In this document: piece by piece, positions 1-20,000 of the stretch
Position numbering within the stretch: position 1 is the stretch's first letter
How the letters are laid out: each line of letters starts with the position of its first letter
Assembly: GCF_018977255.1 (NCBI RefSeq)
Contig: NW_024704742.1
Location: 12,774,001-12,838,000 of the forward strand
DNA: 64,000 nt
Reading direction: 5' to 3'
Origin: Callorhinchus milii
Lineage: Eukaryota
The notes under the pieces: model-generated
Told to the model about the DNA's origin: nothing
Database searches by the model: none
Seen by the model: the letters and a program-made list of their open reading frames with translations, nothing else
Made by a program: the position numbers and the translations under genes

Positions 1-24
1 AAACGTAACTGGAGCAAAAATGGG

Positions 25-330
25 TCAAGGGAGAGATTTTTTGAGAAGTGGGTGGTGACAACAGTTTTGAGAGAGATGGGAATTGTACCAGTGTACAAGG
101 AGCAGTTCACAATAACCGTTAAAATGGGCAAAGAGGTGAAGCTGGGAGGTCAGGAGATGAGTAGGGATGCGGTTAAGGCAGCATGTTATGAGTTTCATGA
201 AGGAGGAAAGGAGGAAAGAAAGAATGAAGAAAAGATTGAAACTATGGAAGGAGGAGTGGATGGAGGCTAGAAGGGAAAGAGGAGGGGGAGGGAGTAAGGG
301 GTAGCACGACGAATGCTCACGAGTTTGGAC
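25..330 (-). mobile_element. Degenerate L2-clade LINE ORF2 fragment
   Basis: Minus-strand translations IPTHLL and PLLKK resemble the pre-RT region of L2 elements (PLLKK-like also near 10315). Confidence 0.5.
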
Positions 331-550
331 CCAGGGAAGTCCATCATCTCCTTGCTTTTGGAGGAGCCAAAACTTATACATAAATAGTGGCCACTTGGGC
401 AAGTTACCAGAGAGGTTTCTGTGGACTATAGCGAATAGGAAGAAATATAGAAGTTAAACCCACTTCAGAAGAGAGGAGAATAACATAGGTCTGTTACGTT
501 GCTAAATTCTCAGGGGAGTAAATGAACTGTCTTGAACAGTTTGTACTTAC

Positions 551-653
551 AGATCCTTCAGAACAGCTGATGACTTGTTGGAAAGAATTGCTGTAATCAC
601 AGCAGAGTACCTCTTCTTTGTGAGACACTGATTTGCTGTCACGCAGCTCCTTT
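551..653 (-). pseudogene. WDR95-like remnant exon g (103 nt)
   Basis: ttttatatgcag|A AAG GAG...GGA TCT|gtaagt; KELRDSKSVSHKEEVLCCDYSNSFQQVISCSEGS (SH start of a WD blade). Confidence 0.8.
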
Positions 654-765
654 CTGCATATAAAAGAAAATATCTAGTAAGCGATGGTGTCATCAGTTAA
701 CATTACCCACCTCCTGACAAGTGCCACAGCGAGAGAAGAGTCCCACCCGCTGTCCTGGTCTAACT

Positions 766-1069
766 ATAATAATCCTTGCATTTGATGTAGCGCTTTTCAC
801 GTCTTCTAGACGTCCCAAAGCGCTTCACAGAATATACTGTAAAGTGAATTGACTGTATATTTGTGGGCGAACGCGGCAGCCAATTGCGCACAGCAGTATC
901 CCACAAAGTCGTTGATTGAAAATGACCAATTTATTATTGTTTTTGGTTTTTGAGGGATTATTATTAGGCGTGTGGAGTAAGGAAACTTGCCCAAGGTTTC
1001 GCCCTGCCTGGAATTGAACTCAGGTCTCTCGCTTGCAAGGCGAGTGCTCTAACCACTGAGCTACAAATC
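766..1069 (-). mobile_element. tRNA-derived SINE, full length
   Basis: Minus strand: GTAGCTCAGTGG A box, CTCGC-cttgcaa-GCGAG anticodon arm (TGC, Ala-like), GAGTTCAATTCC B box, tail aaatgcaaggattattat; many copies in the window. Confidence 0.85.
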
Positions 1070-1362
1070 ACTGGCGCAAATCAGTACTTTAAGTAATGAG
1101 CTGTAATAATAATTAGTTGCATTTGATCTCATTTGTAACATCTTAAAATGCTTCACACAATGAGTTACTTTGAATTCAGTGATTCTCGGTGTATGTCTCT
1201 CTCCTTCTCTGCCAATGCCTCTCTTAATAGTTACACATTTGATTATATTTGCTGTGCAATGTATCTCAGTTAAATCTAGTTATGTATTTATGTGTTTGAT
1301 TTTGTGACACTGTGAAAGATGTTGCTATCCGTGCTCTCCATTCGAGATATTTTCTTACTTAC

Positions 1363-1507
1363 CTGTCAGTGAGCTGTAGTAGAACCAGGGAATTTGTTGC
1401 AATGCACTCAGATCTTCAGAATGATAACAGGCAGACAGTTCTCCTCTGAGCTGAATAGTTTTAGGGTTTATGGTAGTGAGACATGTCTGATCTTCAATAT
1501 CCCATAC
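1363..1507 (-). pseudogene. WDR95-like remnant exon f (145 nt, frameshifted)
   Basis: atgttttag|GTA TGG GAT ATT...GAC AG|gtaagt; VWDIEDQTCL WD motif; 3n+2 nt are needed but the exon is 145 nt. Confidence 0.8.
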
Positions 1508-3695
1508 CTAAAACATATACATTAATGTGAGATAAAGTGAGAACATTGCTGAGAAATGATATCTGTGATGGGATAATGCATAATCATGAGTCAGCATATA
1601 TATATATATATAAAACGTGTGTGGATATACAATGTATGTGTGTATGCATATATGATACAGATATGACCAAATGTGTATCAGGAGAAATTCCAAGAGAAAT
1701 CCAAAACTCTGAATTTGGCTCCAATCTGAGGACAATCAAGGCATCTGAACACATGAATCACACTGTACTCTGCCCTGGATGCAGCTCTCAGCAGACTGAA
1801 CCATCTAGACAAAAATAACTTGTCACTCCAGCAGACGGATCACAATGACTTAATAATTCCGCCTTTAACTGCAAAAAATAATGCAAAAAGATAACACTGA
1901 TTGGGTGTTATAGGATTCATACACTTTGTATAGAAAATAAGCCCGCACCCCCCACCTGTAGTTTATACAGCAGGGAGTTCTCGCAGGGTCCTGGCTAATA
2001 TTTCTCCCTCATCCAGATTAAAAAAAGATTAAGTGGGCAATCATCTTATCGGTGTTGATGGGGCATTGCTGAATAACGCACTAGTATAGAAGTCTGCAGG
2101 CCGTATATTTTCCAGCAACAGGCTCCAGGAGCCAATCACCCCAATCCTCATCTGTCTTTGTTAGCTCCCCAGCCCCCAGAGGATCAAGTTCAAGATACTC
2201 GTTCCCACTGCTGGCAAATTAAAGTGACTGGTGGCAGTCTGAAGATCTAAACATGTACATAGCCTGCAGGTTGAAGTGCACCTCTCCCTGTGCTAAGCAT
2301 GGCCCACTTTGTCTGTGCTGACAGATACTCTTTCATGCCAAACATACTCTTTGCCAAGTTTTTCCTCTGTCTCATTATCTTCATAAGGATGGGCTTTGCT
2401 GGTAACAATGTGGTGCAGAGCACACAGTATTTAGTGTGTTGCTAGAGCATGAATAATGTATCCTGTTGCTATGAAAACAAACACTGTGTAAGGTGTGGCT
2501 AAAATAACACTTCCTTGCCTTCCACATCATCAGCAAAGAGACACTTAATGTTGCAGTTATCCAGCTGCCTATGGATTAGAAGACTCTTGTTCCTCTGCCT
2601 ATACAGTAAACAGATTCACTGTTCACAAATATATCCCAGACCATCACCTATTCAATGCTATTTTATAACCAACCAGAATCATGTATTCCTGTGAGTTTCC
2701 CTCAAATTGTAATCCCTCTTGCCCGGGAAGGTTATGTATGCTCACCCGTATCTCATCCAAATGACCTGTCTCATACTGTCCGTGTAATGCTGTAGTCAGG
2801 CTGGTTTCAGATACCCCAAGACAGTGGGACAAGGGGACATACGCCAGTGATGTGAAGAGAAAGTAAATATTTATTTACACTGATGGTAAATTTTAATTTT
2901 GAGGAAGGGAGATTGAGGCCAGGACACTGGACCAATTTAAGAAACAACGTGATGCTGTAATGGGAAGAGGATATGTTGGGTATTTAGAAAGAGGAGATCA
3001 AATAGGCTGAAGGGCCTTCTTCATGTGAACATCACTTGTGTATAATCGTGTGACATGTGAAGCTAGAAAGTATCAGCAGGCTATTTAACAAGGAGGGTAA
3101 ATCACTGGCAATTGTATTCTTCATGTCACATTCATAACTGTGCACTTTCCAGCGAGGTTCACTGAACAGTGATCAGGAATAGAAATCCTAGTTGATTTTT
3201 CCCTCTGTCAGAAACCCTGAGACCAATTGTAGAGCTCATATTGCTAAGATGAGATAACAGCATGACGTGGGCTTCCTTTTCCATCTGTATGCCTAGCTGA
3301 ATCTTTCACCTTCAAATCTCTCCAGTCTCGCCCCACACTATCTCTGTGCTTCCTCAAACCCTACTGAGCCTGCTTAGGACCCCGATTCTAACCCTACAAT
3401 CTGCTTTTGCAAAAGAGCTAATATACCCTAACTCCTGGGCAAAAAGTCACTATGTTAAAGTGTTTAAATACTGCTTTGGGCATCTTCGAAGAGCACAGAA
3501 AGATTGGGTCCATGTATGAAGGAAACCTGCTGAAGAATTTTGGGAGAATAAGCAAATCCTGATGCACTGCAATAACAGAAACTGTAAAAGTTGGTAAACT
3601 ATACACTGAGGTTCAACATGCAGTATTTTTTAATAGATTTCCATAGTAAAGTCTCATGTTAGATTCCCCATTGACCTCCATGGAAATTACACCCC

Positions 3696-3800
3696 AGACA
3701 AATATACAGTCAATTCACTTTACAGGTGTTCTGTGAAGCACTTTGGGATGTCCTCCCGACATGAAAAGCGCTATATCAAATGCAAGGATTATTATTATTA
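3696..3800 (+). mobile_element. SINE 3' fragment
   Basis: cagtcaattcactttacag...gcgctatatcaaatgcaaggattattatt. Confidence 0.75.
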
Positions 3801-5004
3801 ATGTCAGAGTGGTGTTCCAACAGGTCAATGTAACGCACTTCATGTTAGCAGACTGGATGATTCTGATTCTTTATTAAGAAATCCCATTAAGAAACACCAC
3901 AGCATTAAGATCTCACTGTCTCAGAACAACAACAAAATTACATTTACATAGCGCCTTTCATGTCGGGAGACATCCCAAGGTGCTGAACAATCAATGTTTT
4001 GGACCCGAGTTGGGGTCGAGATCGGGGAGGGTGAAGCAAGGAAACAGTTACCCCCCCACAGAAGAATTCAATTCCTGCCTGATCAATGAAACATATGCTA
4101 TATGTTAACTATTTATACTATAGTGCACAGGATTGAGCTGAAGAAGTAATGTCCAGAAGTTCTCAGTTTAAAGTATTGTGGACTAAATAGCTGTTTAATC
4201 CAGAAAGCTATACTGAAACGGAATGGGTGTCAGAGCTTCAGAGAGCCCAATGATGTGAGGAAGTAGGTGCCTTGGTGCATTTATCAGACTGTCAGAAGGT
4301 GCTTCCTGGTTTTGGTTAAAACTCTCAGAATATTCCAGAAAAAAATTAAAAATGCTTTAGCATGCTGCCCTCCTCTGGCAATTCTGCAGCAGCCAATAGC
4401 ATCTGGGTCCTACACAAAATGAAGCCTTCTTTTGTGCTGTAAATTTCTATTATTCTACGGTTCTAAGTACTTTTTGCGCAAAAGCGTTTAGCAATGATAT
4501 AAATCATGTCAAAACGGACCATTTCATCACCGAAAAGATGATACCTTGCTTTCATGTGTTACTATGATAGTAGGCTGTGTGCACTGCCACAGGAGGGCAC
4601 CAGGCTCAGCATCTCTGATACTGTCCAGATTATTTTAATAATCTCAGTCAAAAATAGGTGAACCTTCTGGCAACACTTTAGAAAATACAGCAATACCCAT
4701 TGCCTTACATCATCAGACTTTAGGCTCTGAAACATGGTTAGTCTACCTCTTCTCTCACCGAACAATCACAGCACACCCCCAACCCCCCATGTATGGCAAA
4801 AGCAGGAAGTAATTAAATGATTGGCAATCATAAATCCATAGAAATGTCAGCATAGAAGGTCATTCATAGCTGTGCTTCTGCTAGTTCTACACTGGATTTA
4901 TCAACTCTAAATAGTCCTATTTACCCACACTTTCCTTATACCTGTGAATATCGTAATTCTTTAACTGATAATCTAATTTCATGTTTAAGTTGTGTAAAAG
5001 CCGT

Positions 5005-5530
5005 TTAGAATCATAGAAATTACAGCACAGGAAAAGACCATTCATTCCATCGTATATGTGCTGGCTCTTTTAACAACAAACCTTTCAGTCCTTTTTTACC
5101 TACCTTTTCCTGAATACCTGCAAATGTATTCTTTTTTAGATATCTATCTGGTTCCCTTTTTAAAATCAATATGGATTCTGCCTCAGGGCCAAATGCTGGC
5201 AGGGCATTCAATATCCTCACTACTCTGTGTGTGAAAAAAATTCTCCTAGCCTCCACATTTGCTCATTTACTAACTATCTTAAGTTGATGCATAGAATCAC
5301 TGACTCACCAACCAGTGGAAATAATTTCTCTCTATTGACTACTAAAATCTCTGATAATTTTAAAGACCTCTGTCTAGTCACCCCTCAACCTTCTTTGTTC
5401 CAGCTGAAAAAGTCTCAGTGACTCCAGTCTGTGCTCATAGAGAAAACCACTCATCCCTAGTATCATCCTAGTACATCTTCTCTGCATCCTTCTATTGCCT
5501 TGATATTCTTCTTAATGTGGGGTGACACAC
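5005..5530 (-). mobile_element. CR1 LINE 3' fragment
   Basis: ORF 5020..5256 RRIFFTHRVVRILNALP; short repeated ttctatga-type tail. Confidence 0.75.
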
Positions 5531-5983
5531 TTTAGTTGTAGTAACAGGTTGTACATCCTAATAGCCCTTTGTGTAAAATCAATTCCTTCTTTCCTCTCCT
5601 TTATAGTATGAGCAATAATCTCTTGTTATGGCCATTCATAGAAATAAATATTTGCACTTTACCCTCCTGTGAGACATTGTGTGCTCAAATTGGCTGACAC
5701 TTAACTTTACAAAAATTCTGTGAAGTGCTATGAAACATTTCAACATGATAAGAAGCAATATCAAATGCAATTATTATTAAAATATTATTAAAATATCTTT
5801 CACAATGATCACTTCTATGAGATCCCCCCTTATTATCTATGCTCCACTGAACACAGCCCCAAGTTTTATTAAGCCATTCATCATAACTATTGTTTCATCC
5901 TAGTGAATATAATTGCACTCTCTTCATAGCTCCTGGGACACAAAAATACTCAGTGAGTCTGTAACTCATTGAATAAATCTTAC

Positions 5984-6053
5984 CAATGACCAATGCCGTG
6001 GAATGGTCATTGGAACTTGAGATAACTGTTCTCATAGGATCAACGTATTTAAT
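5984..6053 (-). pseudogene. WDR95-like remnant exon e (70 nt)
   Basis: gtcttgcag|ATT AAA TAC...GTC ATT G|gtaaga; IKYVDPMRTVISSSNDHSTALVI(G). Confidence 0.8.
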
Positions 6054-6154
6054 CTGCAAGACATCATATAGATAAACTATAGTAAATAAGTGACAGATTT
6101 TTCAATATTAAAGGTATTACAAAGTCTCTCCAAGGTACCCAAATATATTTCTAC

Positions 6155-6271
6155 CTCTGTCAACCAGTCATTGTGAACTTCCAACGGATGGAGGAGAGGT
6201 TACCAGTGTTGATGATTTTCTCAATGCTAATGGTTGGAATTCCATCCAATACTGGACACTTTGTCCAGCTC
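6155..6271 (-). pseudogene. WDR95-like remnant exon d (117 nt, frameshifted)
   Basis: ttatctgcag|G AGC TGG ACA...ACA GAG|gtagaa; the flanking phases require 3n+1 nt but the exon is 117 nt; the IRW.VHNDW motif is split across two frames. Confidence 0.8.
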
Positions 6272-6859
6272 CTGCAGATAAATGATGTCAAACGAATGAT
6301 TTGTTGAAGTAGCATTACAGAAACATTAGTTACACTTCTGAGAAATATAGGTAGAAATCAGGTTGAACATTAGTGGAGATGTTATGATGAAGAGAACTCT
6401 TTGGCCTATTTGATCTCATTTAATACAGGGACATTTTGTTAATTGGATACTCAGTTTAACAGGGAAAATGATTCAATAAACCAAACTATTCATATAACTG
6501 GACTAAACATCAAAATAGCCTCACATCCTGGAGCTCGCGCTGCACCTGAAACGCTCTCCTCCACCCATCAGACTCACTCCATCAGACTCATCCTCACTCG
6601 CACGTGGCCAACTGACCAATCGTCAATGACCTCCATGGGGAGTGAAGCGAGGGGAGGTGGAAGAAGAGTGAGGCAAAGGGAGGGGGAAGAAGAGTGAGGG
6701 GAGGGGGAAAAAGGACACCGATGATGCCGAGGACACTGTACATGGCACGAAGCCAGGAAGGTTATTAGAGAAATGAAGCGGGATCAATGGGTTGCATCAC
6801 TACAAAAGAGGGCACGACTAAACAAGAACAATCCTAAATCTTTCTTCTGTCGTCAGTTA

Positions 6860-7700
6860 TGGTCAGAGGGGATCCCTCTGGACTCGTGCCTGTGTTGGAC
6901 AAGACACATCAATGTATCATTGAGTAATTAGGGGAGCATTATGCAAAGTTGGCATCTGACCCAACAGACCACTGTAGAGATCCAGTTGTGCAGGATTGCT
7001 GTTCTCTGTTTGCAGACAACATTGTGCTGCTGGTGGACTCACCTAGGGAACCTCTGAGCTGCACTCGCCATATTGAACACTGCCCAACCACTGGGACAAG
7101 GTGATGGATGCCCCCAAGTGCAGAATCAGGGTTCTGCACAGCTTCAAGTAAAGCCATTGAGAGTATTGATTGGAAGATACAAGTACCAATCCCAATTATT
7201 GATTCTTATTGGTACCCATTGTGATGGACACCAACTTCTGCCTGGATACTGTCCTGACGGACCACGCTCATCTCTCTTCAAGGACATCAAGGTCCCAATG
7301 TAGGTCAAGATCTGTGACCTAACACTGTAAGTCCTGTGTGCAAACAATCCTCCTTCACAGATCTGAGCTCCTGGGAATGCAACAGAGGATGCAACATCCA
7401 TCCCAGGTTCCTCCGGCCTATTTTCAAAGTCCAGGATCAAGCAGTGAGGTACATTTGTGGCAAACACGAGAAGCGGATGCAGGGAGGGAGGGCTGTGGCC
7501 TTCACTCATCTGTCGCTAAGCACCCTGGATGTGGAGATGGCTTCATGGTGGGCACATCTATTTGCCAAGGCCCCTCACATGAGGACCTGGGTTAAGCAGT
7601 GGTGCTGAATAAGCCTGGTATGCGGCATTGGATTTGGACCTCGAGAACATCGAGATGGCTGCCCTATCACAAGCTGTCCTGTAAATGTCCTCCCACCATG
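6860..7700 (+). mobile_element. Degenerate non-LTR retrotransposon RT fragment, probably RTE clade
   Basis: SLFADNIVLL (RT FADD-like motif) near 7005; CKSCVQTILLHRSE and RFLRPIF resemble RTE C-terminal motifs; many disruptions. Confidence 0.5.
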
Positions 7701-8194
7701 CTGAAGGCAGATGTCTGTCAGATTGCTGATGAGGAAATTTGGAGGCTTGGAGCGACAGTGAATATGAAGTGAATGTGTAACAGTGAATGGACTAGGAGTC
7801 TCAAACAATCTAGCTCATGAAAGGGTCCTTACAACAATTAAGAGAAAAATGGTAAGATTTGACACCATTTTCACTATAAGATAAATGACAAAATAATTTC
7901 TATTGTCAGTGAATTAACATAAACATATAGTATGTTAAAGACAAAAGGGTTGGTATCTTTCCTGGTCACTTTGCATTATCTCAAGAGCTTTCTAAATAGC
8001 TCAGTGAGTAAATGTTCTGAGCCTCAGAGTGTAGAAGTATGAGCTATACAGATTAGGAAAGCCTGGAAGATCTCAAGTTCCACCCTTGTTCTGCACTGAA
8101 CAAGCTGAGCTCAGTGGTGAGCACGAGGAACAGAAAAACAAATTACTATCTGCTTACCTCTAGTCATAGCTGTAATACATGATAATGATCAGTG

Positions 8195-9810
8195 CTCACC
8201 AAAAATAGAGGGGAGCCAAGAAGCTAATGTTAGTGAGCAATTTAGGGAAATTAACATCAGTAAAGAATTAATACTAGGGAAACTGTTGGGATTGAAAAAT
8301 GACAAATCCCCTGGACCTGATGGCCTGCATCCTAGGATTTTAAAAGAGGTGGGGGCTGAGATAGTGGATGCCTTGTTTTTGATGTTCTCTGGATTCTGGA
8401 ACGATTCCCATTGATTGGAAGATCGCAAACGTAACTCCAAGATTGTAGAAGTGTGGGAGAGAGAAGATGGGGAACTATAGACCAGACAGTCTGACATCCG
8501 TGGTAGGGAGAATTCTAGAATCCTTAATTAGGGACGTTGTAGCGGGGTACTTAGAAGACCATAACATGATTAGGCAGAGAAGTCATGCTTAACAAATCTT
8601 TTAGAGTTCTTTGAGGATGTAACTATCAGGTTAGATGGGGGCGGGGGGGGGGACCAGTAGATGTAGTGTATTTAGATTTTCAGAAGGCATTCAACAAGGT
8701 GCCACATAAAAGGCTGCTACACAAGATTAGGGCCCATGGTATTAAAGGCAATATATTAACATGGATCGAAGAGTGACTAATGAGAAGAAAACAGAGCGTA
8801 GGGATAAACGGGTCCTTCTCAGATTGGCAAGATGTGACTAGTGGAGTGCCTCAAGGATCAGTGCTTGGGCCTCAACTATTTACAATCTATATCAATAATC
8901 TAGACGAGGCCATTGAACTTAAAATATCTAAATTCGCAGATGATACTAAGCTAGGTGGGAGAGTAAGCTCTGAGGATGACACAAAAAGATTGCAAAGGGA
9001 TAGATAGCTAGGTGTGTGGGCAAGAAGGTGGCAGATGGAATATAATGTGGGGAAGTGTGAAGTTATTCACCTAGGTAGTAAAAACAGAAAAGCAGATTAT
9101 TTTCTAGAGGGGGAGAGATTAGATAGTGTTAGTGTTCAGAGGGATTTGGGTGTCCTTGTATACCAGTCACAAAAAGTTACTATGCAGGTACAGCAAGCAA
9201 CTAGGAAGGCTAATGGCATGTTGGCGTTTATTGCAAAAGGGTTAGAATACAAGAGTAGGGAAGTCTTGGTGCAACTGTATAGGGCCTTGGTGAGACTGCA
9301 CCTAGAATATTGTGTGCAGTTTTGGTCTCTTTATTTAAGAAAGAGCATACTCGCCTTAGAAGGGTGCAGTGTAGATTCACTAGGTTGGTTCCTGGGATGA
9401 GGGGGTTGACCTATGAGGATAGGTTGAGTAAACTAGGCCGATATTTTCTAGAATATAGAAGATTAGGGGTGATCTTATAGAAACATAAGATTCTTATGGG
9501 GCTTGATAGAGTGGACAGTGTGAGGCTGTTTCCCCTGGTAAGAGAATCTATAACTAGGGGGTCACAGTCTTAAGATTAAGAGGCAGCCTTTCCGAAAAGA
9601 ATTGAGGAAACACTTCTTCACTCAGAGGGTAGTAAATTTATGGAATTCCCTACCCCAGAAGGCTGTAGATGCTCAGTCCTTGAACATATTCAAGACTGAG
9701 ATTGATGGATTTCTAAAAGATAGAGGGATTAAGGGATATGGGGATAAGGCAGGCAGAAGGTTAGAAGGGCAGTCTCGAGGGCTGAATGGCCTAACTCCTA
9801 TATTCCTATG
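8195..9810 (+). mobile_element. 5'-truncated CR1 LINE (RT and 3' end), disrupted
   Basis: ORFs 8780..9007 ([19 protein letters not shown]), 9014..9400 and 9602..9811 (FFTQRVVNLWNSLP). Confidence 0.92.
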
Positions 9811-9841
9811 AAAGTAAGCAATAACCCAGTTTGTTCCATAC

Positions 9842-9888
9842 CTGAGGGTTTCTCCCACTAACGATATCAGGAAGATATTGACACACCC
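9842..9888 (-). pseudogene. WDR95-like remnant exon c (47 nt)
   Basis: tttttcacag|GGG TGT GTC...ACC CTC AG|gtatgg; GCVNIFLISLVGETL(R). Confidence 0.8.
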
Positions 9889-9967
9889 CTGTGAAAAACC
9901 GAAAATTCAATTGATATCTTTTACCTTTGGATGCATTTTCCTTTTCTTGCACATTAGTTCACTAAAT

Positions 9968-10279
9968 TAATAATAATAATCCTTGCATTTGACATAGAGC
10001 TTTTCACATCTTCTAAATGTCTCAAGGAGCTTCACAGAATAGATCGTAAAGTGAATTGACTATATATTTGTAGGCGAAATGCAGCAGCCAATTGTGCACA
10101 GCAGTGTCCACAAACAGTCATGGATTGAAATGACCAATTTGTTATTGTTTTTTTTTCTTGAGGGATTATTATCAGGCGTGTGGAATAAGGCAACCTGCCC
10201 AAGGTTTCACCCTGATGGGAATCAAACCCAGGTCTCTCGCTTGCAAAGCGAGTGCTCTAACCACTGAGCTACAGGATTC
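9968..10279 (-). mobile_element. tRNA-derived SINE, full length
   Basis: Colinear with the copy at 766-1069. Confidence 0.85.
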
Positions 10280-10299
10280 TACATTAGTTATTAGTTCAT

Positions 10300-11803
10300 G
10301 CTGTCATCATTCCTATCCTTAAAAAAACCTTCCCTGGACTCTTCTCTACTCCCTAACTACGGCCCCATCTCTAACCGCCCCTTCCTCTCCAAGATCCTGG
10401 AACGAGTTGTTGCTTTTCAGCTTCGCTCCTTCCTCTCCTGCCATTCCCTTCTCGAAGCCCCCCCACACCCCCAATCGGGCTTCTGTGCTGCCCACAGCAC
10501 AGAAACCGCCCTGGTCAAAGTGACAAAATGACATTCTGTCCATCTGCGTACAGGGCTCCCTCTGCCTCCTTGATCTCCCTTCTGCTTTCGACACCGTCGA
10601 CCACTCTATCCTCATCCACCGCCTCTCCTTTCACCTCAACCTCCACGGCGCTGTCCTTGATTGGTTCAGATCGTACCTCTCACACTACCTGCACTTCATC
10701 TCCTCAAACGGCTTCTCCTGTAGCCCCCGGACCATCTTGTGTGGCGTTCCTCAGGGCTATGTCCTTGGTCCTCAACATTTATATGCTCCCTCTTGGTGAC
10801 ATCATCCGCAGACATAGGATCAACTTCCACATGTATGTGGATGACACCCAACTCCCTCTCTGCCTCCACCCTTGACTCCAAGACCACTGCTGTGCTGACA
10901 GAATGTCTGTCAGGCATCAAGTCCTGGATGAGAGCTAACTTTCTTCAGTTGAACGTCAACAAGACCGAGGCTCTCCTGTTTAGCTCCCGTCAGCGCCTCC
11001 TCACCTCAGGCGCTGACAGCATCACCATCCATGGTTGCACACTGCACCTTGCTAAGCCAGTCCGGAACCTTGGGGTTTTGTTCGACCCTCAACCATCCTT
11101 TCTACCCCAAATCTGCACCATGACCTGCTCTGCCTTCCCCCACCTCCGCAACATCACCCGGCTCCAACACTGTCTCACACCACAGGCCACCAAAACCCAT
11201 AAGGAAATACACCTTCATTACATCGAGGCTCGACTATGCAAACTCACTGCTTGTCGCCCTCCCCAACTCCTCCCTCCATAGGCTGCAGATTATCCAGAAC
11301 TCTGCAGCCCGTGTCCTCTCCCGCACTAGGCTCCGCGACCCTATCACCCCTATCCTTGCCCAACTCCACTGGCTTCCCATCACACAGAGGATACAGTTCA
11401 AGATCCTGGTCCTCATCTTCAAAGTCCTTCATAGTCTTGCCCTACCTCTCCGACCTCCTAACCCTCTACCATCCTGTTTGCTTCCTCCATTCAACAGGCT
11501 CCAGTCTGCTTCACGTCCCCCGCCTTGCTCGCCCCACTATTGGTGGGTGGGTCTTCTGCCACTCTGCACCCACCCTCTGGAATTCCATCCCACAGTCCCT
11601 CCATCTCGCCCCCTCCCTCGCCACCTTCAAGACCCACCTCAAGACCCTCCTCTTCAACCGTGCTTTCGATCTCCCTGCTTCCCCCCTGCCCTCCCCCCAC
11701 CCCGACCCTCAGCTCGGGTCCGAAACTCTGTCTGTCCAATGCCTTGGGACGTCCTCCCAACATGAAAGGCGCTATACAAATGTAATTTTGCTTTTGTTGT
11801 TGT
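10300..11803 (+). mobile_element. 5'-truncated L2 LINE (RT and 3' tail), disrupted
   Basis: [46 protein letters not shown]; tail ggcgctatacaaatgtaattttgc(ttg)n. Confidence 0.92.
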
Positions 11804-12671
11804 AAAGTCAATATTCCACAATTGTGGGACTCAAAGACAGTTCAGGAGGTGACAGTAGCTAGCGTACTGAGAATTGCATTGAGGGAGTTGTACAAAAGGT
11901 TGACAGAGGAGGACTTTGCTATATGGTTTTTAGTTGAGGAGGACAGTAAGATGACCTCTCAGGTCTTTGAATGTGGGACAGACCCAAAAAAGAAGCTCAG
12001 CACATTGAACCAATGAAAAAGGAATGTTTTCAGTCTCAAAAGTCTAGCTTCAAAAGTTCCAGTTTCAAAAGTTTACATCAGCTTTATTTAAGAAAACAAA
12101 TCACAGCTTGATCTACTGAGAAATTGGTGTGAAAGAGGTATTCATAACCATAACCACTTCCACAAGGCTGCATCTTTCATCAGCTCCTGCAAAAAGTAAT
12201 TCATCCAAATAAAATATTTTTCATAAACAGTGTTAAACACACGTGGATATCAAATGAAAATTTGATGTGGCTGGGTTATAACTAAATAGCTTTGTGACAC
12301 TCTTTGTCCTGGGGTGACAGGCTGACATGTTTACAAAGACCATTTGAGCCAGGTATTGGAGTATCTATCACTGGTGCTCTGCTGCTCTAACTCAATGTGA
12401 AACAGAACAGCACCTCAAGAGAAGAAAATTGGAGAAGAAAGGGGAAATTGTAAAAAAAGGCATTTAAAGAAAAAATAGTTGCACATTGCATACACATTCT
12501 GAACATGACCAGTTAAACGACTATAATTACAAATTACCGATCATAACTGCATAGTTAGAGTTTTACAGTAAATCCTGTGAAGTGCTTTGAGACGTGAAAG
12601 GTGCTGTATTACATGCAAAGATTATTTTTACTACCAAAAATACAGTAAACCAAATATTGAGTTTATCATAT

Positions 12672-12717
12672 CTGTTCATCACCAAACAGGATTACACACT
12701 CATCATTTTCTGTGGAA
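12672..12717 (-). pseudogene. WDR95-like remnant exon b (46 nt) with non-canonical AT donor
   Basis: ttctctcctttag|T TCC ACA...GAT GAA CAG|atatga; phase fits exons a and c; STENDECVILFGDEQ. Confidence 0.75.
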
Positions 12718-12753
12718 CTAAAGGAGAGAAGGATTAAAGAAGGACTGAGTCAA

Positions 12754-13070
12754 TCAACAACAACAAGATTACATTTGTATAGCGCCTCTCATGTCGCCTC
12801 TCATGTCGGGAGGACGTCCCAAGGTGTGTACAGCATTTCAGACCCGAGCTGGGGTCAGTGGGTGAGAAGGGAGGGAATGGGGGTGACCGATGGCATGGTC
12901 GAAGAGGAGGGTCTTGAGGTGGGACTTGAAGGAGGCTAAAGAGGGGGCGAAGCGGAGTGATTGGGGGATGGAATTCCAGAGGTAGGGGGCAGATTGGCTG
13001 AAGGCTCTCCCACCAATGGGGGGGGGGCGGGTGGGTTGGGGGACGTGGAGCAGACCGGAGCTGATGTACA
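12754..13070 (-). mobile_element. L2 LINE 3' end
   Basis: (caa)n tail; GGRAFSQSAPYLWNSIP...FKSHLKTLLF. Confidence 0.85.
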
Positions 13071-13764
13071 GCACTGTTCCATCAAGTTAAGAAGAGGTTT
13101 TTGACAAATGTTTCAAATGAGCTTGGTAGCGGTGGGAGAAGAGATCCAGCCGTGAAACACTGACAAAGGCACAAACAATGATTATGAGAATTTAGTGTGA
13201 AAGAGGCATTCAAAACCGTAACATTTTTGTTCCTGTCCTATTTTTATGAGATTTGTTGACACTTACCCTTGCTTAAATACATTTTAATAGTTCCTGTTAT
13301 AGATTGCATGAAAAGGTATTACTGCCTAAATAATACAAGATTGTAACAAGATGAATAAATGGTTGTTTAAACCTCCAGTGTGAATGAATCCCATATCTCA
13401 CGTGGTTGTAATTGGAAGCCAACAGGGTCTATCACCTGGTCAGTGGAACTGGAGGTCTTTTCATCAAGTGTTTGTATTATAAAATAATCACCATCAACAC
13501 CTATGATGAAATGATCCCTAGTATTAACAACCATGGCAATGGCAGGTTTCATCTAGTGATGGCCAGAGGCTTTCCCAAAGGAGAAAGAGTTCAGACATCG
13601 AGTGCACATCACAAGACCACAAGATTGGTTTGTTTGAAGAAGGCCCATCTGAACTCATCCTTCCTGAAAATCCACCTTACCATTCTCCCATCACAGATTC
13701 AAACTGCTTTCTAAATGAGTCCAGAGGTCCTGGCTCAAGGCTCAATCCCAGTTGCTGGCCATGT

Positions 13765-14210
13765 GTATCAGGTTGGCTCAAGTGATAGTGCTCTTGCCTC
13801 TGAGTCAGGAGATTGAGGGTTCAAGCCCCAGGGCGGATCTTGATACCCATATGGTCTAAGCTGACACTCTAATGCAATGCTGGGGGGTGTGCTGCACAGT
13901 CAGAGTTGCCGTCCTTCGGATGAAACGTTAAAGCAATCCCCCATCTGCCTGTTTAGGTGGATGTTAAAGGTTCCATGGCACAACTAAAAAAGATAAGACT
14001 GTTCCTCCCGGTGTCCTGGCTAACAATCCCCCAAGATAGAACTGGTCATTCACTTCAAGGCTGTTTGTGAAACATTGCAGTTTGCAATTTGTTGTCTCAT
14101 TCATCCACAAAATACAGCCACTTCACTTTATGATATATCCTGTGAAGAGCTTTGGAACGTCTTCCTGATGTGAAAGGCACTTTACCAAATCTAAAGATTA
14201 TTATTATTAT
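13765..14210 (+). mobile_element. DeuSINE-type element (tRNA head, Deu domain, L2-like tail)
   Basis: tggctcaagtgatag A box, gggttcaagccc B box, gccgtccttcggatgaaacgttaaa...ggtggatgttaaaggttccatggca...ccggtgtcctggctaac Deu core, (tta)n tail. Confidence 0.7.
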
Positions 14211-14529
14211 ATTGACCTTTTCCAGTGTTAATTATACTGCTCTCCTCTATACCGACTCTAGGGCCTCAACAGCCCTGATGTTGCGGTGACCAGGACTGTA
14301 TACAGTACTCTGGAATTGGGCTGACCATAGTACTATTCAAACTGAGCATGGCTTCAATCTACGACAGACCTTGGAGGTGCAGGCAAGACCCCAAGTGAAA
14401 GACCTAACCAGCAAAAAAGTTGCAGCTGAACAACTGAACGGTTACCATCATCTTTTTTAATGAGTGGAAATGCCTTTGAACCTTTTCATTTCTTCATTGA
14501 TATGACTTATTAAACAGCAAGAACGTTAC

Positions 14530-14622
14530 CTGTTGTCCAGGTGAAGTGGCATGGATTCAAGGCCAATGATTTGACAGGAGGGTTCAAAGTTGGAGAGTTC
14601 ATATAAATGCATTTCTCGATCA
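14530..14622 (-). pseudogene. WDR95-like remnant exon a (93 nt)
   Basis: ttttctgcctag|T GAT CGA GAA...GAC AAC AG|gtaacg; DREMHLYELSNFEPSCQIIGLESMPLHLDN, open frame. Confidence 0.8.
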
Positions 14623-16142
14623 CTAGGCAGAAAATATTAATAATAATAGTGATATTATTCATTTTGGATATAAAGTAAATTGCTGATAACGGGACCCTGG
14701 CTTGTCACTACCACTTAAGTAGCTATGCTGTCAATATCCCGGCTGCTTCCTATGCAAAATGTTAATAACGGACTCAATTTTACTTGTCACTCTGCTTAAA
14801 ATATAACTTGTCACATCCTAGAAATTCTTGTAAGAACTTACTTCAGATAACTGGTCCGATAATACGACATTCTGTATCGCAGAGATTCCTTGCCCTATCC
14901 CTTGACTGGTGTGGACACTTGGTGCAGCCCTCCAATAGACCAGAGGCCTCTGTGATGCATCTGAGAATGTGTGCCCAATCTCTGCCGAGTGCCCTAACTA
15001 GTCACACTGCTCCCTTGCGGCCCGGGGGACATAACAAGCCACTCCAAATAATTTGTCGCTGAGCGCTTTTCCCTTGAAGTGAAGAGTTATCAGGAGTTTA
15101 CTATATATAAATAGTATTTTCCTTGAAGGATATTGCTAATATTGCTAAGTGTGGTCTAGTGAGTGTTTCAGGGGAAATTAAACAGGCATAGTGGCATCCC
15201 TAAAATATACAAACTTTGGTGGTGGATCGGTCAAGAATGCAGAATGCTCCATAAATTAAACAATATATATAATGCAATATAATAAAAATATATATTGTGC
15301 GTTTAGGGAAAACACAGAGACACACAGACACTCACAAACACATTTGGTTTGTAATGGTTACATGTTTACATAAATGTCTATACATGTAGATGCTTGCACG
15401 TACTTTGGACAATGGAATTATTTGTTCAATCGGTATTAAAGCCACATTTAAATGTTTTTAAAATTGTGAGCTATGGCAATTTATTGATGTTATTTATTTT
15501 ATGCTTTATAAAACACATCAAGAATTATGTACATTTTTACCTTATTCTTATTGAATAACTTTATACTTTTTTTTGATAATTTAAGCAATTTTTTTGAATT
15601 TTAAAAATATTTTTGCATATGCATTTTGTGAATGAATGTTTTTTTATATATTAATATGCTTAAGTTCAGCAGAAGTTAATTTCTTCCAAAAAATATACAT
15701 TATGTACAAAAGTTCTATCTCATTGGTTTTTTTTGGTGGGGGAAGTGAAATTCATCAAGGCATGTGCTGGCAATGCTGGGGAATAGAACTGGTTTCCATT
15801 TCACATCCCAGTTCCTGACAGGCAAATCCACATCAGGTGCTGCATGTGACATGGCCAGAATACTCAGCCCAAACACAAAGGTCTTCAAAAGGGGAAAAAA
15901 ACATTTTGGAGGTTTAAATTTAAAATATAAAAAGCACCTGCCCAAAACCAATTTGTACTGGCACTGTGACAAAAACACACCCAATTTGGTGTGAACCCAT
16001 CCAAACTTGGGACGCTACCATACTTGAGGGGCACTACATAAATGCACGTTGTTGTTGTTGAAAGCAATCCACCAATCAACTAACAACCAGGTTCCTTGTT
16101 TGTGAGTGCCCTGACCTGGGTAGGACAAATTTGAAAGTCTGC

Positions 16143-16490
16143 AACAAAAAGAAAATTACATTTGTATAGAGCCTTTCACATCGGGAGGACCTTCCAAGGC
16201 GCTGGACAGTCAAGAGTTTCGGACCTGAGCTTGGGATCGGGAAGGTCGATGGCAGGGGAGAAAGCAGGGTGATCGACGGCACGGTTGAAGAGGAAGGTCT
16301 TGAGATGGGCTTGAAGCCAGCGAGGGAGGGGGCGAGGTGGAGGGACTGCAGAATGGAGTTCCAGAGGGTGGGGCAGAATGGCAGAAGGCCCACCCACCGA
16401 TGAAGCCGGCCGGAATCCGCTGAGCGGAGGGAGAGAATAGGATTGTTAAGGGGTTAGGAGGTCGCAGAGGTAGAGGGCTATGGGGAGAGA
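16143..16490 (-). mobile_element. L2 LINE 3' end
   Basis: Same tail as 12754-13070 ([16 protein letters not shown]). Confidence 0.8.
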
Positions 16491-16919
16491 GTGCGGGAGT
16501 GCGATTAATTTGGACAGCTCTTTCAAAGAACGCGGGTGCGGCCACGGGCACGGCCATGGGCGCGGTGGGTCAAATGGCCTCCTTCTGTGCTGTATAATTC
16601 TATGAATTTATGAACCCTGACCAACACTGAGCAGTCAGTGGTGCCCGGAAGTGGCCACCCGTGTGTCCACAATAAAAACTCGCCTTTAAACATCTTCATC
16701 TGGGATAGGATGCGTCTGTGCGCTTTTTAAACAAAAACAAAGCTTCTAACAATGACACCTTTTTTTAAGGGAAGAATTGACGTTCTGACACTTTTTTTTA
16801 CCCCAAGTACTGTGACGACGTACAGCGATGTGCTCTCCTCTCTTCCCCACGCCCTGCGTGCCGGACGCAATGACGTCGGGGCAGCCTCGCTGTGGGTGTA
16901 ACGGGCGGCTTTTTCAAAC

Positions 16920-17009
16920 ATGGCAACGTTCGGCAGAGGCGTCCGCGACTCAAACGGGCGACTGTGGCGGCGACTGCAGCGCGAGGAGGAGGAGGAGGAG
17001 CAGTGGTGA
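16920..17009 (+). other. Candidate upstream ORF (29 aa) in the PLK4 5' region
   Basis: aacATGG strong Kozak context; MATFGRGVRDSNGRLWRRLQREEEEEEQW*; out of frame with the main ORF; stop 41 nt before the main ATG. The transcription start is not known. Confidence 0.55.
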
Positions 17010-17050
17010 GTCTGCGCCGCCCCGACCCGACCCAGGGCCTCGGCCCTGAC

Positions 17051-17092
17051 ATGGCGGCGGCCGAAGGCGTCAGCATCGGCGACAAGATCAAG
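17051..17092 (+). CDS. PLK4: PLK4 exon 1 coding part
   Basis: gacATGG Kozak context in CpG island; [14 protein letters not shown]|gtaaac. Confidence 0.9.
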
Positions 17093-20000
17093 GTAAACAA
17101 CAAGCTGCCGCGCTCCACAACGGTGGAGGGGGGAGTGGCGCTTATCACAGCCACCACAGGCCCTCACTATCAAGGAACCTGGTTGGTAGTCAATTGGCGG
17201 ATCGCTTTCAACAACAACAACAACAACTCACATTTATACAATGCCCCTCACCCCCGGCAGTGTCCAGGGTATTTGGGAGTATTTCCCGGGGTAAGAATCC
17301 CTAAAACAATAATAATTTGGTCACTCAATCCGCGTCATATCTGCCCACCACTTCTCCTCCCTCCCCATCATGTGCAGTGTTCCTGAGGGCTCTGTCCTTG
17401 GTCCTCTCTTTAGTATCTCCCGCTCAGCCATGTCATTTCCAGGCAGAGGTTAACTTTCACATGTAAGCAGATAACACCCAACTCCATCTCTGCCTCCAGC
17501 CCCACCACTGCTGTCCTGGCGGATTGCCTGTTGGACAACAAATCCTGCATGAGAGCTAATTTTCTCCAGTTGAATGTCAACAAGGCACAGGCCTACCTGC
17601 TTGCTTCCTATCAGCACCTTCTCCCAGTGCCTTGGGACGTCCTCTTGATGTAAAAGGCACTTTATGAATATAGTTTTGTGTTTTGTATTCTCACCTCAGG
17701 TGTTGACTGCATCATTCTATAATAACACAAGCTGTAATGCACACTCTACGTCATGGAGCCAGTGCGGAAACTTGGTTTCTTGTTTGACTCTAAACTGTCC
17801 TTTAAATCTCATATCCGTGCCTTGACCCATTCCAGCTTTCCCTAACCTCTGCAAGATTGCCCGCCTCCAGCAATTTCTCTTCCCCTTGGGCCGCTGAAAT
17901 CTTTATCCAAGCTTTTATCATGTCCAGGCTACAATTCAGCACCAAACTTCCCAGCTCTTCCCTCCATAAGCTTCAGAGCATCCTGAACTCTGCATCTTAT
18001 TTTGTCTCCCACACCAAGCTCGATGAGCCTATCAGCCCCTTCCTTATCCATTTCAACTGGCTCCCCATCCCTCAGAGGATCATGTTCAAGATCCTCGCTT
18101 TTAAATCCCTCCACGGTCTTGCCCCACCCTACTACCTCCATGCCCCTCTTAAAAACGCTACCAACCTACCCACTCCCTCCACATGACAGGCAACCAATTG
18201 CGCAGTGTCCTACAAACAGTTGTGGATGAGTGACCACATTTTTAAAAATATTAAATTTAATGAGATTATTACCCCTGGAAAGCTATCCGCCAATCGACTA
18301 ACAACCAGGTTCATACTTACTACTAGGTAAACTGAGGCATATGGAGTAAGGAAATGTGCCTAAGGTTTTGCCCTGTCCAGGGATTGAACCCGGGTACTCT
18401 CGCTTGCGAGACGAATGCTCTAACCAATACATTACAGGACTGCAAGAGTTTAATGCAAGTGCCTGACTTTATATATCTAAACTACTGTTATAACAAGGTC
18501 ACTCTGCAGTTTATTTTCCTAACTGAAATCTATTAGCTCTATTCTATGATGAAATGTTGGTCAGTCTCCGTTGGTGAATGTACTGTTGGTGAATTGGGAA
18601 AGGAAGAGGAAAGCTGAAGTGTTTCAGAGTGGCAGAAAGTAACAGTAAAATCTTTCATTTATAATTGTGATCTTCAAGAAATTCATTACAAATTTGAAAT
18701 GCTGATAATTCGTATAGAAACTTTATGAAACCATGACAAAGACTGCCATGGCCTAATTTGCGGAGTCAATGTGCTGGTTTCAACAATAAAGTACTTGGTG
18801 CACAAGTAATATACAATATAATATACTATTTTGGTAGATACACAGCAAAGTCAGATCCACTTGTTAAAACTGCCCTGTTACCATTAAAGTCTGTAGTGGT
18901 CTTACAAAAGATTAGCATGAAAAATGCAATTGCTTTGTGATTTAAAAGTCCATTGAAATCTATTATTCCTACACATTGCATGCTGAATTTTAACAAGAAG
19001 TTTGTCATCAAGTTTGGATAAACTTATTAATCATTGCCTTGTAGGAAATAATAATAATAATCCTTGCATTTGATTATTTTATTATAGCGCCTTATCATGT
19101 CTTCAGTATGTCTCAAAGTGCTTCACAGAATATACTGTAAAGTGTAGTAACTGTATATTTTTTGGGCAAATGCAACAGCCAATTAAGCACAGCAATAATA
19201 CAATAATAATACAAGAAATGTCCCTATAGTTTTTATATTTGAGAATTCATTTCAAAATGTATTTAACTGGCCACCTAATTGGGTCGGTTATCTTGGATAG
19301 ATGCATAAAACCTGATGGTGCTAGCTCACAAACACAGCAATGGGAGGTCAGCCTCCTCTGCTAGATGTAATTCTTCAGTTGGTAGTATTTAGGGAAATGC
19401 TAGAGGCTTTCTGCCCTGGAGTATTCTTTTAATTAAGTAATGGGTCTTAAATTTCTTTTGATGAGTAAAATCCAACCTTGTCCCTTCAAGAGGTAATATT
19501 TTTAATACATAACCTTTTAAGACTTTACTTTAGATTGGCTGGAGTGTGATAGGCTCACGATCACGTAATTGGCTTCCACGTTTTCTGGCTGCTGTCCTGA
19601 CAGACTGTCTGTCGGACATCAAGTCCTGGATGAGGGCAAATTTCCTACAGTTGAATGTGAACAAGACTGAGGCCCTCCTGATTGGCTCACGCCAGCACCT
19701 CCGCACCTTAGGCTCTGGCAACATCAACCTCCATGGTTGCACACTTCAACTCCCCAAGCCAGTCAGGAACCTCGGTGTCTTGTTCGACCCTCACATCCCT
19801 ACATCCAAACCATGACCCGCTCTGCCTTCCCTCACCTCCGTAACTTTCAGCGCCTTGGGACGTCCTCCCGACGTGAAAGGCGCTCTATAAATGGAACATC
19901 GCCTGACTCCGCTACTGCCTCCCCCTTCAGGCCACTAAAACTCTTGTTCATCTCCTCCAGACTATGCAAACGCCCGTCGGCCTTCCCAACTCCTCCCTCC

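Follow-up and report, generated by a model that had tools for sequence, protein, structure and literature searches.

A decayed CFAP337-like WD40 gene standing head-to-head with PLK4, very probably a unitary pseudogene

The window analysed here is a whole stretch of 64,000 nucleotides (nt), G000:C1:12,774,001-12,838,000, from an assembly of 991.5 Mb in 1762 contigs; positions on C1 are obtained by adding 12,774,000 to the window coordinate. Its left end carries, on the minus strand and head-to-head with PLK4, the broken remains of a gene for a WD40 protein. This locus is very probably the unitary, unprocessed pseudogene of a 'CFAP337-like' paralogue, belonging to what is called clade B below, of the axonemal WD40 family FAP337/CFAP337, to which WDR49, WDR64, WDR95, EFCAB8 and Drosophila WDY also belong. 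Seven short minus-strand open segments bounded by AG and GT lie within 551-14622, and both their number and their outer limits agree with an earlier note on this DNA, which had proposed seven exons with proper acceptors. In the order of the minus strand, these remnants are:

14530-14622, minus strand: exon remnant 1, the first coding exon that survives; peptide (S)DREMHLYELSNFEPSCQIIGLESMPLHLD; splice sites intact (acceptor AG, donor GT)
12672-12717, minus strand: exon remnant 2; peptide TENDECVILFGDEQ; donor destroyed, AT at 12671-12670
9842-9888, minus strand: exon remnant 3; peptide GCVNIFLISLVGETL(R); acceptor and donor intact
6155-6271, minus strand: exon remnant 4; peptide SWTKCPVLDGIPTISIEKIINTGNLSSIRWK / (V)HNDWLTE; frame shifted by a 1-nt deletion
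5984-6053, minus strand: exon remnant 5; peptide IKYVDPMRTVISSSNDHSTALVI; intact
1363-1507, minus strand: exon remnant 6; peptide VWDIEDQTCLTTINPKTIQLRGELSACYHSEDLSAL / IATNSLVLLQLTD(R); frame shifted by a net 7-nt deletion
551-653, minus strand: exon remnant 7, the last in the window; peptide KELRDSKSVSHKEEVLCCDYSNSFQQVISCSEGS; intact

All seven acceptors are AG and six of the seven donors are GT, the exception being the AT that follows exon 12672-12717. No in-frame stop occurs in any of the seven. Homologues were collected with phmmer against 1.84 billion representatives, the query being the 50-residue translation of 1355-1507, and 15 proteins matched at E <= 0.001. The matches with a single stretch of high identity were WD40 proteins of skate, coelacanth, turtle and monitor lizard, named in their sources 'uncharacterized LOC116984909', 'WD repeat-containing protein on Y chromosome-like', 'uncharacterized' and 'WD repeat-containing protein 49, partial'. 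When the window was searched by tblastn with six of the homologues found in this way, matches covered all seven segments and followed the order of the protein. Identity per exon was 37-79% (E down to 6e-10) to P0010, the clade-B protein XP_032899089.1 of the skate Amblyraja radiata, and 46-76% (E down to 5e-13) to P0017, the 890-residue 'WD repeat-containing protein 64-like isoform X2' of Stegostoma tigrinum, also in clade B. Remnant 1 alone, DREMHLYELSNFEPSCQIIGLESMPLHLD, is 79% identical to residues 149-177 of P0010 and 76% identical to residues 125-153 of P0017. The colinear, significant matches to family proteins for which the earlier note had called are thus present.

The WD-blade motifs that had been quoted from these exons could all be located: VHNDW at 6181-6155, VWDI at 1507 and SHKE..CC.Y at 628-548. 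The separation of VHNDW and IKYVDP... into two exons was likewise correct, remnants 4 and 5 being divided by an intron of 101 nt (6054-6154). Another match, 'VMVWDI' at 2647-2630, is attributed to chance, because in the homologues this motif spans an exon junction. Single exons are very short, and only one of the seven translated open reading frames of the window (551-653) gave a Pfam WD40 match, at E 0.018 and 16 bits against a cut-off of 27; full-length relatives carry PF00400. Searches of the PDB with single exons returned weak, generic WD40 matches only. A word-index search with the open reading frame over exon 551-653 gave two candidates, none of which scored, weakly suggesting that this exon is missing from catalogued proteins.

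Three lesions interrupt the gene within 551-14622, and all three that had been claimed there, an AT donor, a 1-nt deletion and a net 7-nt deletion, are in the assembly. Their description is helped by an intact paralogue elsewhere in the same assembly, the C4 gene. The donor of remnant 2 reads CAG|ATATGA, as compared with GACCAG|GTAAGA at the homologous C4 boundary. In remnant 4, nucleotide alignment to the C4 exon places the loss of one base between 6179 and 6178 (TGGAA-GTTCAC vs TGGAAGGTACAT); the deletion separates ...SSIRWK from (V)HNDWLTE, which are matched as two adjacent high-scoring segment pairs in different frames. The net 7-nt deletion of remnant 6 lies inside 1400-1414, near 1405-1411 in the alignment to the C4 exon, and splits ...CYHSEDLSAL from IATNSLVLLQLTD, giving two overlapping segment pairs in different frames.

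The locus does not stop at the edge of the window. When the skate protein was searched against all six frames of the assembly, additional matches appeared left of the window, together with the complete-looking paralogue on C4, and the 40 kb left of the window and 50 kb of C4 were searched again by tblastn with P0017 and with P0023, the 1083-residue clade-A CFAP337 of Heterodontus. The 60-kb stretch of C1 that was searched contains no N. Fourteen more exon remnants lie left of the window, making 21 in total; since the same order of matches continues through these fourteen, the colinearity seen in the window is more than chance. The locus as a whole spans about 39.9 kb, from G000:C1:12,748,763 to 12,788,622 (window -25,237 to 14,622), and thus reaches 25 kb beyond the left edge. 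Its last exon ends ...AGELNDPFDITV followed by TAA at C1:12,748,763.

The left part of the locus is also damaged. All that is left of the exon for P0017 residues 449-485 is its final 12 codons (ITCMAFGNTETR) at C1:12,772,822-12,772,857, with the GT donor; this truncated exon directly abuts a C-rich tandem array (G-rich on the plus strand) of period 15/21 nt and about 15 copies at C1:12,772,861-12,773,219. A second broken donor, AG|GAAACA (GA) where the paralogue has AA|GTAAGT, follows the exon ending near C1:12,770,198. An 11-nt deletion near C1:12,765,270 splits KNSHNDEVLSVA from PNLLASSSYDGEIIVWN, and another of about 2 nt near C1:12,750,252 splits ...KCHRIT from QELKQLDS. Two premature stops are present, a TGA at C1:12,763,670-12,763,672 (IRS*AAS) and a TAG within the last exon at C1:12,748,889-12,748,891 (KCIEK*KMYGRL). 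The earlier description of three lesions without in-frame stops therefore holds inside the window and fails for the whole locus, which has at least 11 disabling features with both a TGA and a TAG among them.

In the same region, a weak similarity was seen out of order at C1:12,751,659-12,751,727 (window -22273 to -22341, minus strand), where GA*DHHLCLYQLSQTDPYCSCVG resembles the family exon DREIR.YELSNFEPYCQIIG (exon 1) at E about 0.02-0.05; this may be a coincidence, or may reflect an old partial duplication.

Other exons have gone altogether. They were searched for by tblastn with 12 family proteins in five intervals, matches being considered up to E 20. The 5' coding exons (P0017 residues 1-124) gave no match with these 12 queries in 14623-17050, that is up to the PLK4 ATG, or elsewhere in the window; the C4 paralogue matches P0017 residues 24-97 at E 2e-11. 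Two central exons (P0017 residues 250-364) had no homologous match in 1508-5983 in the same search, and the C4 paralogue matches them at E 1.8e-21 and 4e-05. One of these two is the best conserved exon of the family, and in whole-genome searches the missing central segments were found only on C4. A repeat search at E up to 3 (six queries, two of the five intervals) recovered only the 12-codon remnant ITCMAFGNTETR. In total, the lost exons account for about 240 residues, in addition to most of the one truncated by the tandem array.

The paralogue that serves as internal control occupies G000:C4:70,469,000-70,517,100. It aligns over 985 codons to the Heterodontus CFAP337, with 690/985 identical residues (70%) and 0 stops. 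The exon boundaries of the remnant coincide with those of this gene, and because introns are kept at the positions of the C4 paralogue the locus is unprocessed. The view of an unprocessed pseudogene head-to-head with PLK4 is accordingly upheld by the C4-like exon boundaries, the lesions and the PLK4 ATG at 17051 on the plus strand. As to copy number, P0010 and P0017 were each searched against all six frames of the 991.5-Mb assembly, giving 30 and 21 matches, respectively; no second clade-B copy was revealed, only the clade-A gene on C4 and more distant paralogues. WD40 paralogues of the latter kind were observed at G000:C11:18,337,638-18,342,563 and G000:C1:23,979,260-23,980,526, both on the minus strand, with exon-by-exon matches to the skate and shark proteins at 24-47% identity; they are possibly family members of the WDR64 or EFCAB8 type.

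The position of the gene within its family was addressed with a tree. Relatives were gathered by a word-index search with the skate protein (151 at E <= 1e-10, the best 120 of which were listed), and their names included 'cilia- and flagella-associated protein 337(-like)', 'WD repeat-containing protein 49/64(-like)' and 'WD repeat-containing protein on Y chromosome(-like)'. Two rows were added to 37 of these relatives, one made of the exon fragments of the window gene with X at stops, the other a projection of the C4 gene based on tblastn segments. The resulting alignment of 39 rows and 955 columns was analysed in a careful IQ-TREE run (LG+C20+F+G4) with cnidarian outgroups, with which a quick tree agrees. 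Mammalian WDR49, WDR64, WDR95 and EFCAB8 are outside this tree, none being among the 120 relatives listed.

Two well-supported vertebrate clades were obtained. Clade B (18 rows, 100/100) contains the window row and otherwise consists of '-like' proteins of roughly 800-900 residues (shorter in partial models) from sharks, skate, coelacanth, lungfish, amphibians, turtles and lizards; within it, the five elasmobranch rows form the sister group of the window row (100/99). Clade A, from which the window row is excluded (100/100), comprises 16 rows (100/100) and holds proteins of roughly 1000-1085 residues with an EF-hand region. Inside clade A, the C4 gene has four elasmobranch 'CFAP337' rows as its sister group (100/99), and the teleost rows of the tree belong to this clade as well. 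No N-terminal exons were found in the remnant. Both clades hold cartilaginous and bony vertebrates, therefore the duplication that separated them predates the split of these two groups. The window and C4 rows are each sister to elasmobranch rows, which suggests that the present genome comes from a lineage sister to the elasmobranchs, most likely a holocephalan.

By its place in the tree, the window gene is the orthologue of the elasmobranch CFAP337-like genes, in an old gnathostome clade whose members are labelled 'CFAP337-like / WDR64-like / WDR49-like'. Attribution to a WDR95/WDR49/WDY family, as first proposed, was right as regards membership in the FAP337/CFAP337 family; the gene is in the separate clade B and is not an orthologue of WDR95 or WDR49. 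No mammal or bird occurs among the 120 relatives listed (the best 120 of 151 in a word-based search), which weakly hints at other losses of clade B. Two side observations concern individual rows of the tree. The Alligator mississippiensis proteins P0049 and P0050, nearly identical and both in clade A, are named 'testis-expressed sequence 26 protein isoform B' and 'WD repeat-containing protein 64'. The skate protein P0010 (650 residues) has an end branch of 0.39, as compared with 0.06-0.09 for shark rows, and 12/129 clade-invariant changes; its gene model may be partly wrong or incomplete.

Taken over the whole locus, disabling features number at least 11 and are of five kinds. They include the TGA and TAG stops, four frameshifting deletions (1, 7, 11 and 2 nt), two broken donors, and the losses of exons, that is the missing 5' exons, the two missing central exons and the one exon truncated by a minisatellite. 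Because exons were lost or truncated, donors mutated, frames shifted and stops gained, the protein can no longer be encoded. As to the course of events, the ancestral gene stood head-to-head with PLK4, and its coding exons numbered more than 24. Its product, if clade B behaved like the rest of the family, would have been seated within the 96-nm repeat of the axoneme on the CCDC96/113 coiled coil, in contact with CFAP57 and an inner dynein arm. In the present lineage, this function would be left to the intact CFAP337 on C4 and to the more distant paralogues, and the loss would have been tolerable because these genes carry it; clade A probably carries the function now.

The timing of the loss can be approached from the surviving exons. 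The mild decay of their amino acids indicates a loss that is young relative to the age of the lineage. Over about 1800 recognisable coding bases there are two nonsense changes, four frameshifting deletions with one in-frame codon loss, and two to three broken splice sites. By rough rules of thumb, and with rates that are unmeasured, the counts in each class would fit roughly 2-3% neutral divergence since constraint was lost. Such a figure would place the loss of constraint late on a very long branch, that of a lineage sister to all elasmobranchs. The phrase 'early stage of decay' used in the earlier note is therefore fair for substitutions, residue decay being mild and the loss young, and unfair for structure, exons for about 240 residues having gone.

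Several observations weigh against an interpretation as a decayed clade-B gene. All lesions rest on a single assembly. The surviving exons are little eroded: of 43 columns on which every other vertebrate row agrees, the window row departs at 2, and it departs at 8 of the 98 clade-B-invariant columns, as compared with 12/129 for the skate and 12/164 for Xenopus, and its residue decay is at the upper end of, but inside, the range of predicted live proteins. Its end branch in the careful tree (0.39) is not longer than the paths to the elasmobranch tips (0.32-0.65). At the exon ending ...RRIN(I) near C1:12,770,025 there is no GT at the expected donor place, and the intron position seems to differ between the clades at this point. 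The missing exons are tblastn negatives, and very divergent remains could have escaped.

The neighbourhood shared with PLK4 and the repeats around the remnants contain the following features:

17051-17092, plus strand: PLK4 first coding exon, with the ATG at 17051 and 14 residues before a GT; head-to-head with the remnant
within the open frame 24825-25940, plus strand: PLK4 kinase exon (Pkinase, E 1.1e-43)
33944-34379, plus strand: PLK4 exons for Plk4_PB1 and Plk4_PB2 (Pfam)
16011-16110 and 16129-16614: interspersed repeats within 14623-17050 (repeat map)
8195-9766, plus strand: intronic fragment of a long interspersed nuclear element (LINE), not part of the gene (RVT_1, E 8.4e-08 on 8777-9004)

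A comparison of 1-17000 with a 137-kb sample of the same genome and with itself matched at least 6062 of its bases (36%). Five of the seven window exons have no overlap with repeats; the matches at 14526-14625 and 541-583 are single-copy and presumably are the paralogous C4 exons. Short interspersed families with up to 46 copies per 137-kb sample were seen at 756-1065, 3685-3806, 9928-10299, 10305-11821, 12752-13063, 13762-14223 and 16129-16614, and several such repeats translate to a '...EEEGLE.GLEGG...' frame that recurs across the window. Inside PLK4, a long LINE copy at 27435-31061 on the plus strand, related to the 8195-9766 fragment, forms a chain of open frames (RVT_1, E 2.3e-22 on 29952-30518). 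The region of the first PLK4 intron also includes, at 21472-22613, about 1.1 kb of G/T-rich low-complexity sequence with long 'VCVCV...GGW' frames on the plus strand and a GC skew of up to 0.47.

Among the alternatives, the one that survives best keeps the coding gene dead and supposes that the relic is still transcribed from the promoter region shared with PLK4, as a non-coding transcript or one subject to nonsense-mediated decay, perhaps regulating PLK4. The arrangement of the locus lends itself to this idea: the remnant and PLK4 face each other head-to-head, the distance from the PLK4 ATG to the nearest exon remnant is about 2.4 kb, the interval 16001-18000 has a G+C content of 52%, and many splice sites are intact. 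Against it, the 5' exons, probably with the original start of transcription, are undetectable. In a search of sequencing runs (24 listed), four runs from one study and four samples contain 0.74-0.83 of the words sampled from window:1-10000, which has no bearing on the lesions or on expression; no listed run containing the stretch is on record as RNA, itself no evidence either way. We regard continued transcription as improbable, though less so than the two explanations that follow.

A live gene, in which the lesions would be errors of assembly or consensus and the 'missing' exons either too divergent or hidden in misassembled repeats, is very unlikely. It would account for the retention of most invariant residues in the surviving exons and for the canonical donors (6/7) and acceptors (7/7) of the window; the 1-nt deletion does sit in a short G run, and the lesions were read from one assembly. 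These points are outweighed by the number and diversity of the lesions, at least 11 independent ones of five kinds, two stop substitutions and the 7- and 11-nt deletions being improbable as consensus errors. The paralogue in the same assembly shows no such lesion over its 985 codons. Apart from its copy on C4, the exon that is most conserved in the family does not occur in the assembly, and no runs of N interrupt the 60 kb searched.

That the locus is instead a duplicated fragment, and hence a non-unitary pseudogene, of the intact C4 CFAP337 can practically be dismissed: two window exons do share nucleotide similarity with one copy each outside 1-17000, presumably the C4 exons, but the window row belongs to clade B (100/100) and the C4 gene to clade A, both clades hold cartilaginous and bony vertebrates, and identity per exon is higher to clade B than to clade A (e.g. 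64% vs 47% for exon 1363-1507).

The unitary, unprocessed pseudogene of a clade-B gene is thus the reading retained, and it belongs to a family in which changes of this sort have precedents. Human WDR95 is annotated as a pseudogene, and the literature checked gives only the symbol WDR95P. Chlamydomonas FAP337 is reported to be an axonemal WD40 protein with EF-hands, lost together with FAP57 in the ida8 mutant, and its relatives are given as WDR49, EFCAB8, zebrafish WDR95 and Drosophila WDY (PMC6761771). Tetrahymena CFAP337 is described as having two beta-propellers, binding CCDC96 and contacting the dynein d stem (PMC10504270). WDR64 of bovine sperm binds atop CCDC96/113 and is proposed as the sperm-specific counterpart of the WDR49 of epithelia (PMC11779644). 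Male Wdr95-knockout mice are reported to have normal litter sizes, and Wdr95 is said to be without a human orthologue (PMC13253961). Normal litters after the knockout imply that single family members are dispensable, and turnover and loss of paralogues are usual in the CFAP337 family. No published account of clade B or of its loss here was found in a literature search, which had subscription journals outside its coverage.

On a wider view, which we put forward tentatively and consider possible more than probable, clade B would be an ancient gnathostome duplicate of CFAP337, ancestrally beside PLK4 and lost independently several times; hints in favour are that mammals and birds are missing among the 120 relatives listed and that the teleost rows of the tree lie in clade A. 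The present loss would be a comparatively recent one in the sister lineage of the elasmobranchs and would mark a change of the WD40 paralogue on CCDC96/113 in the cilia of sperm or epithelia; transcription of the relic from the promoter region of PLK4 might persist. The case itself is an ordinary one, a single copy of a gene family lost in one lineage and intact in sharks and rays, and no long-standing question is raised by it. What it contributes is one well-documented unitary pseudogene in an axonemal family whose members replace each other between cell types. It also draws attention to a second old CFAP337 clade in vertebrates, inconsistently named 'WDR64-like', 'WDR49-like', 'WDY-like' and 'CFAP337-like'. 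In terms of annotation, the locus is better flagged as a pseudogene about 40 kb long than as scattered open reading frames.

Comparison with known systems places the remnant closest to the elasmobranch CFAP337-like proteins of Stegostoma, Amblyraja, Hemiscyllium, Scyliorhinus and Pristiophorus. These belong to the same orthologous clade and share the exon order, the best row being 61% identical to the window row over 347 aligned columns; they are predicted to be intact, whereas the window copy lacks several exons and carries frameshifts, stops and broken donors. CFAP337 proper, that is clade A with the C4 gene and the Heterodontus protein P0023, has exon boundaries in common with the remnant and shows the WD40 propeller architecture of the family. 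It differs in belonging to the other clade, in being intact and in possessing an N-terminal EF-hand (Pfam PF13499) that is absent from clade-B proteins. The resemblance to WDR64 and WDR49 and to the FAP337/CFAP337 of Chlamydomonas and Tetrahymena is one of homology at the level of the family, as also reflected by the PDB matches of P0017 to 9fqr_No, 'WD repeat domain 64' (E 4.6e-50), and to 8tid_Z (E 4.6e-19). Those proteins, however, are not of clade B, and function has been shown for them only. Mouse Wdr95 and human WDR95P offer the parallel in evolutionary fate: there too, a member of the family was lost in one lineage, although it was a different member at a different locus.

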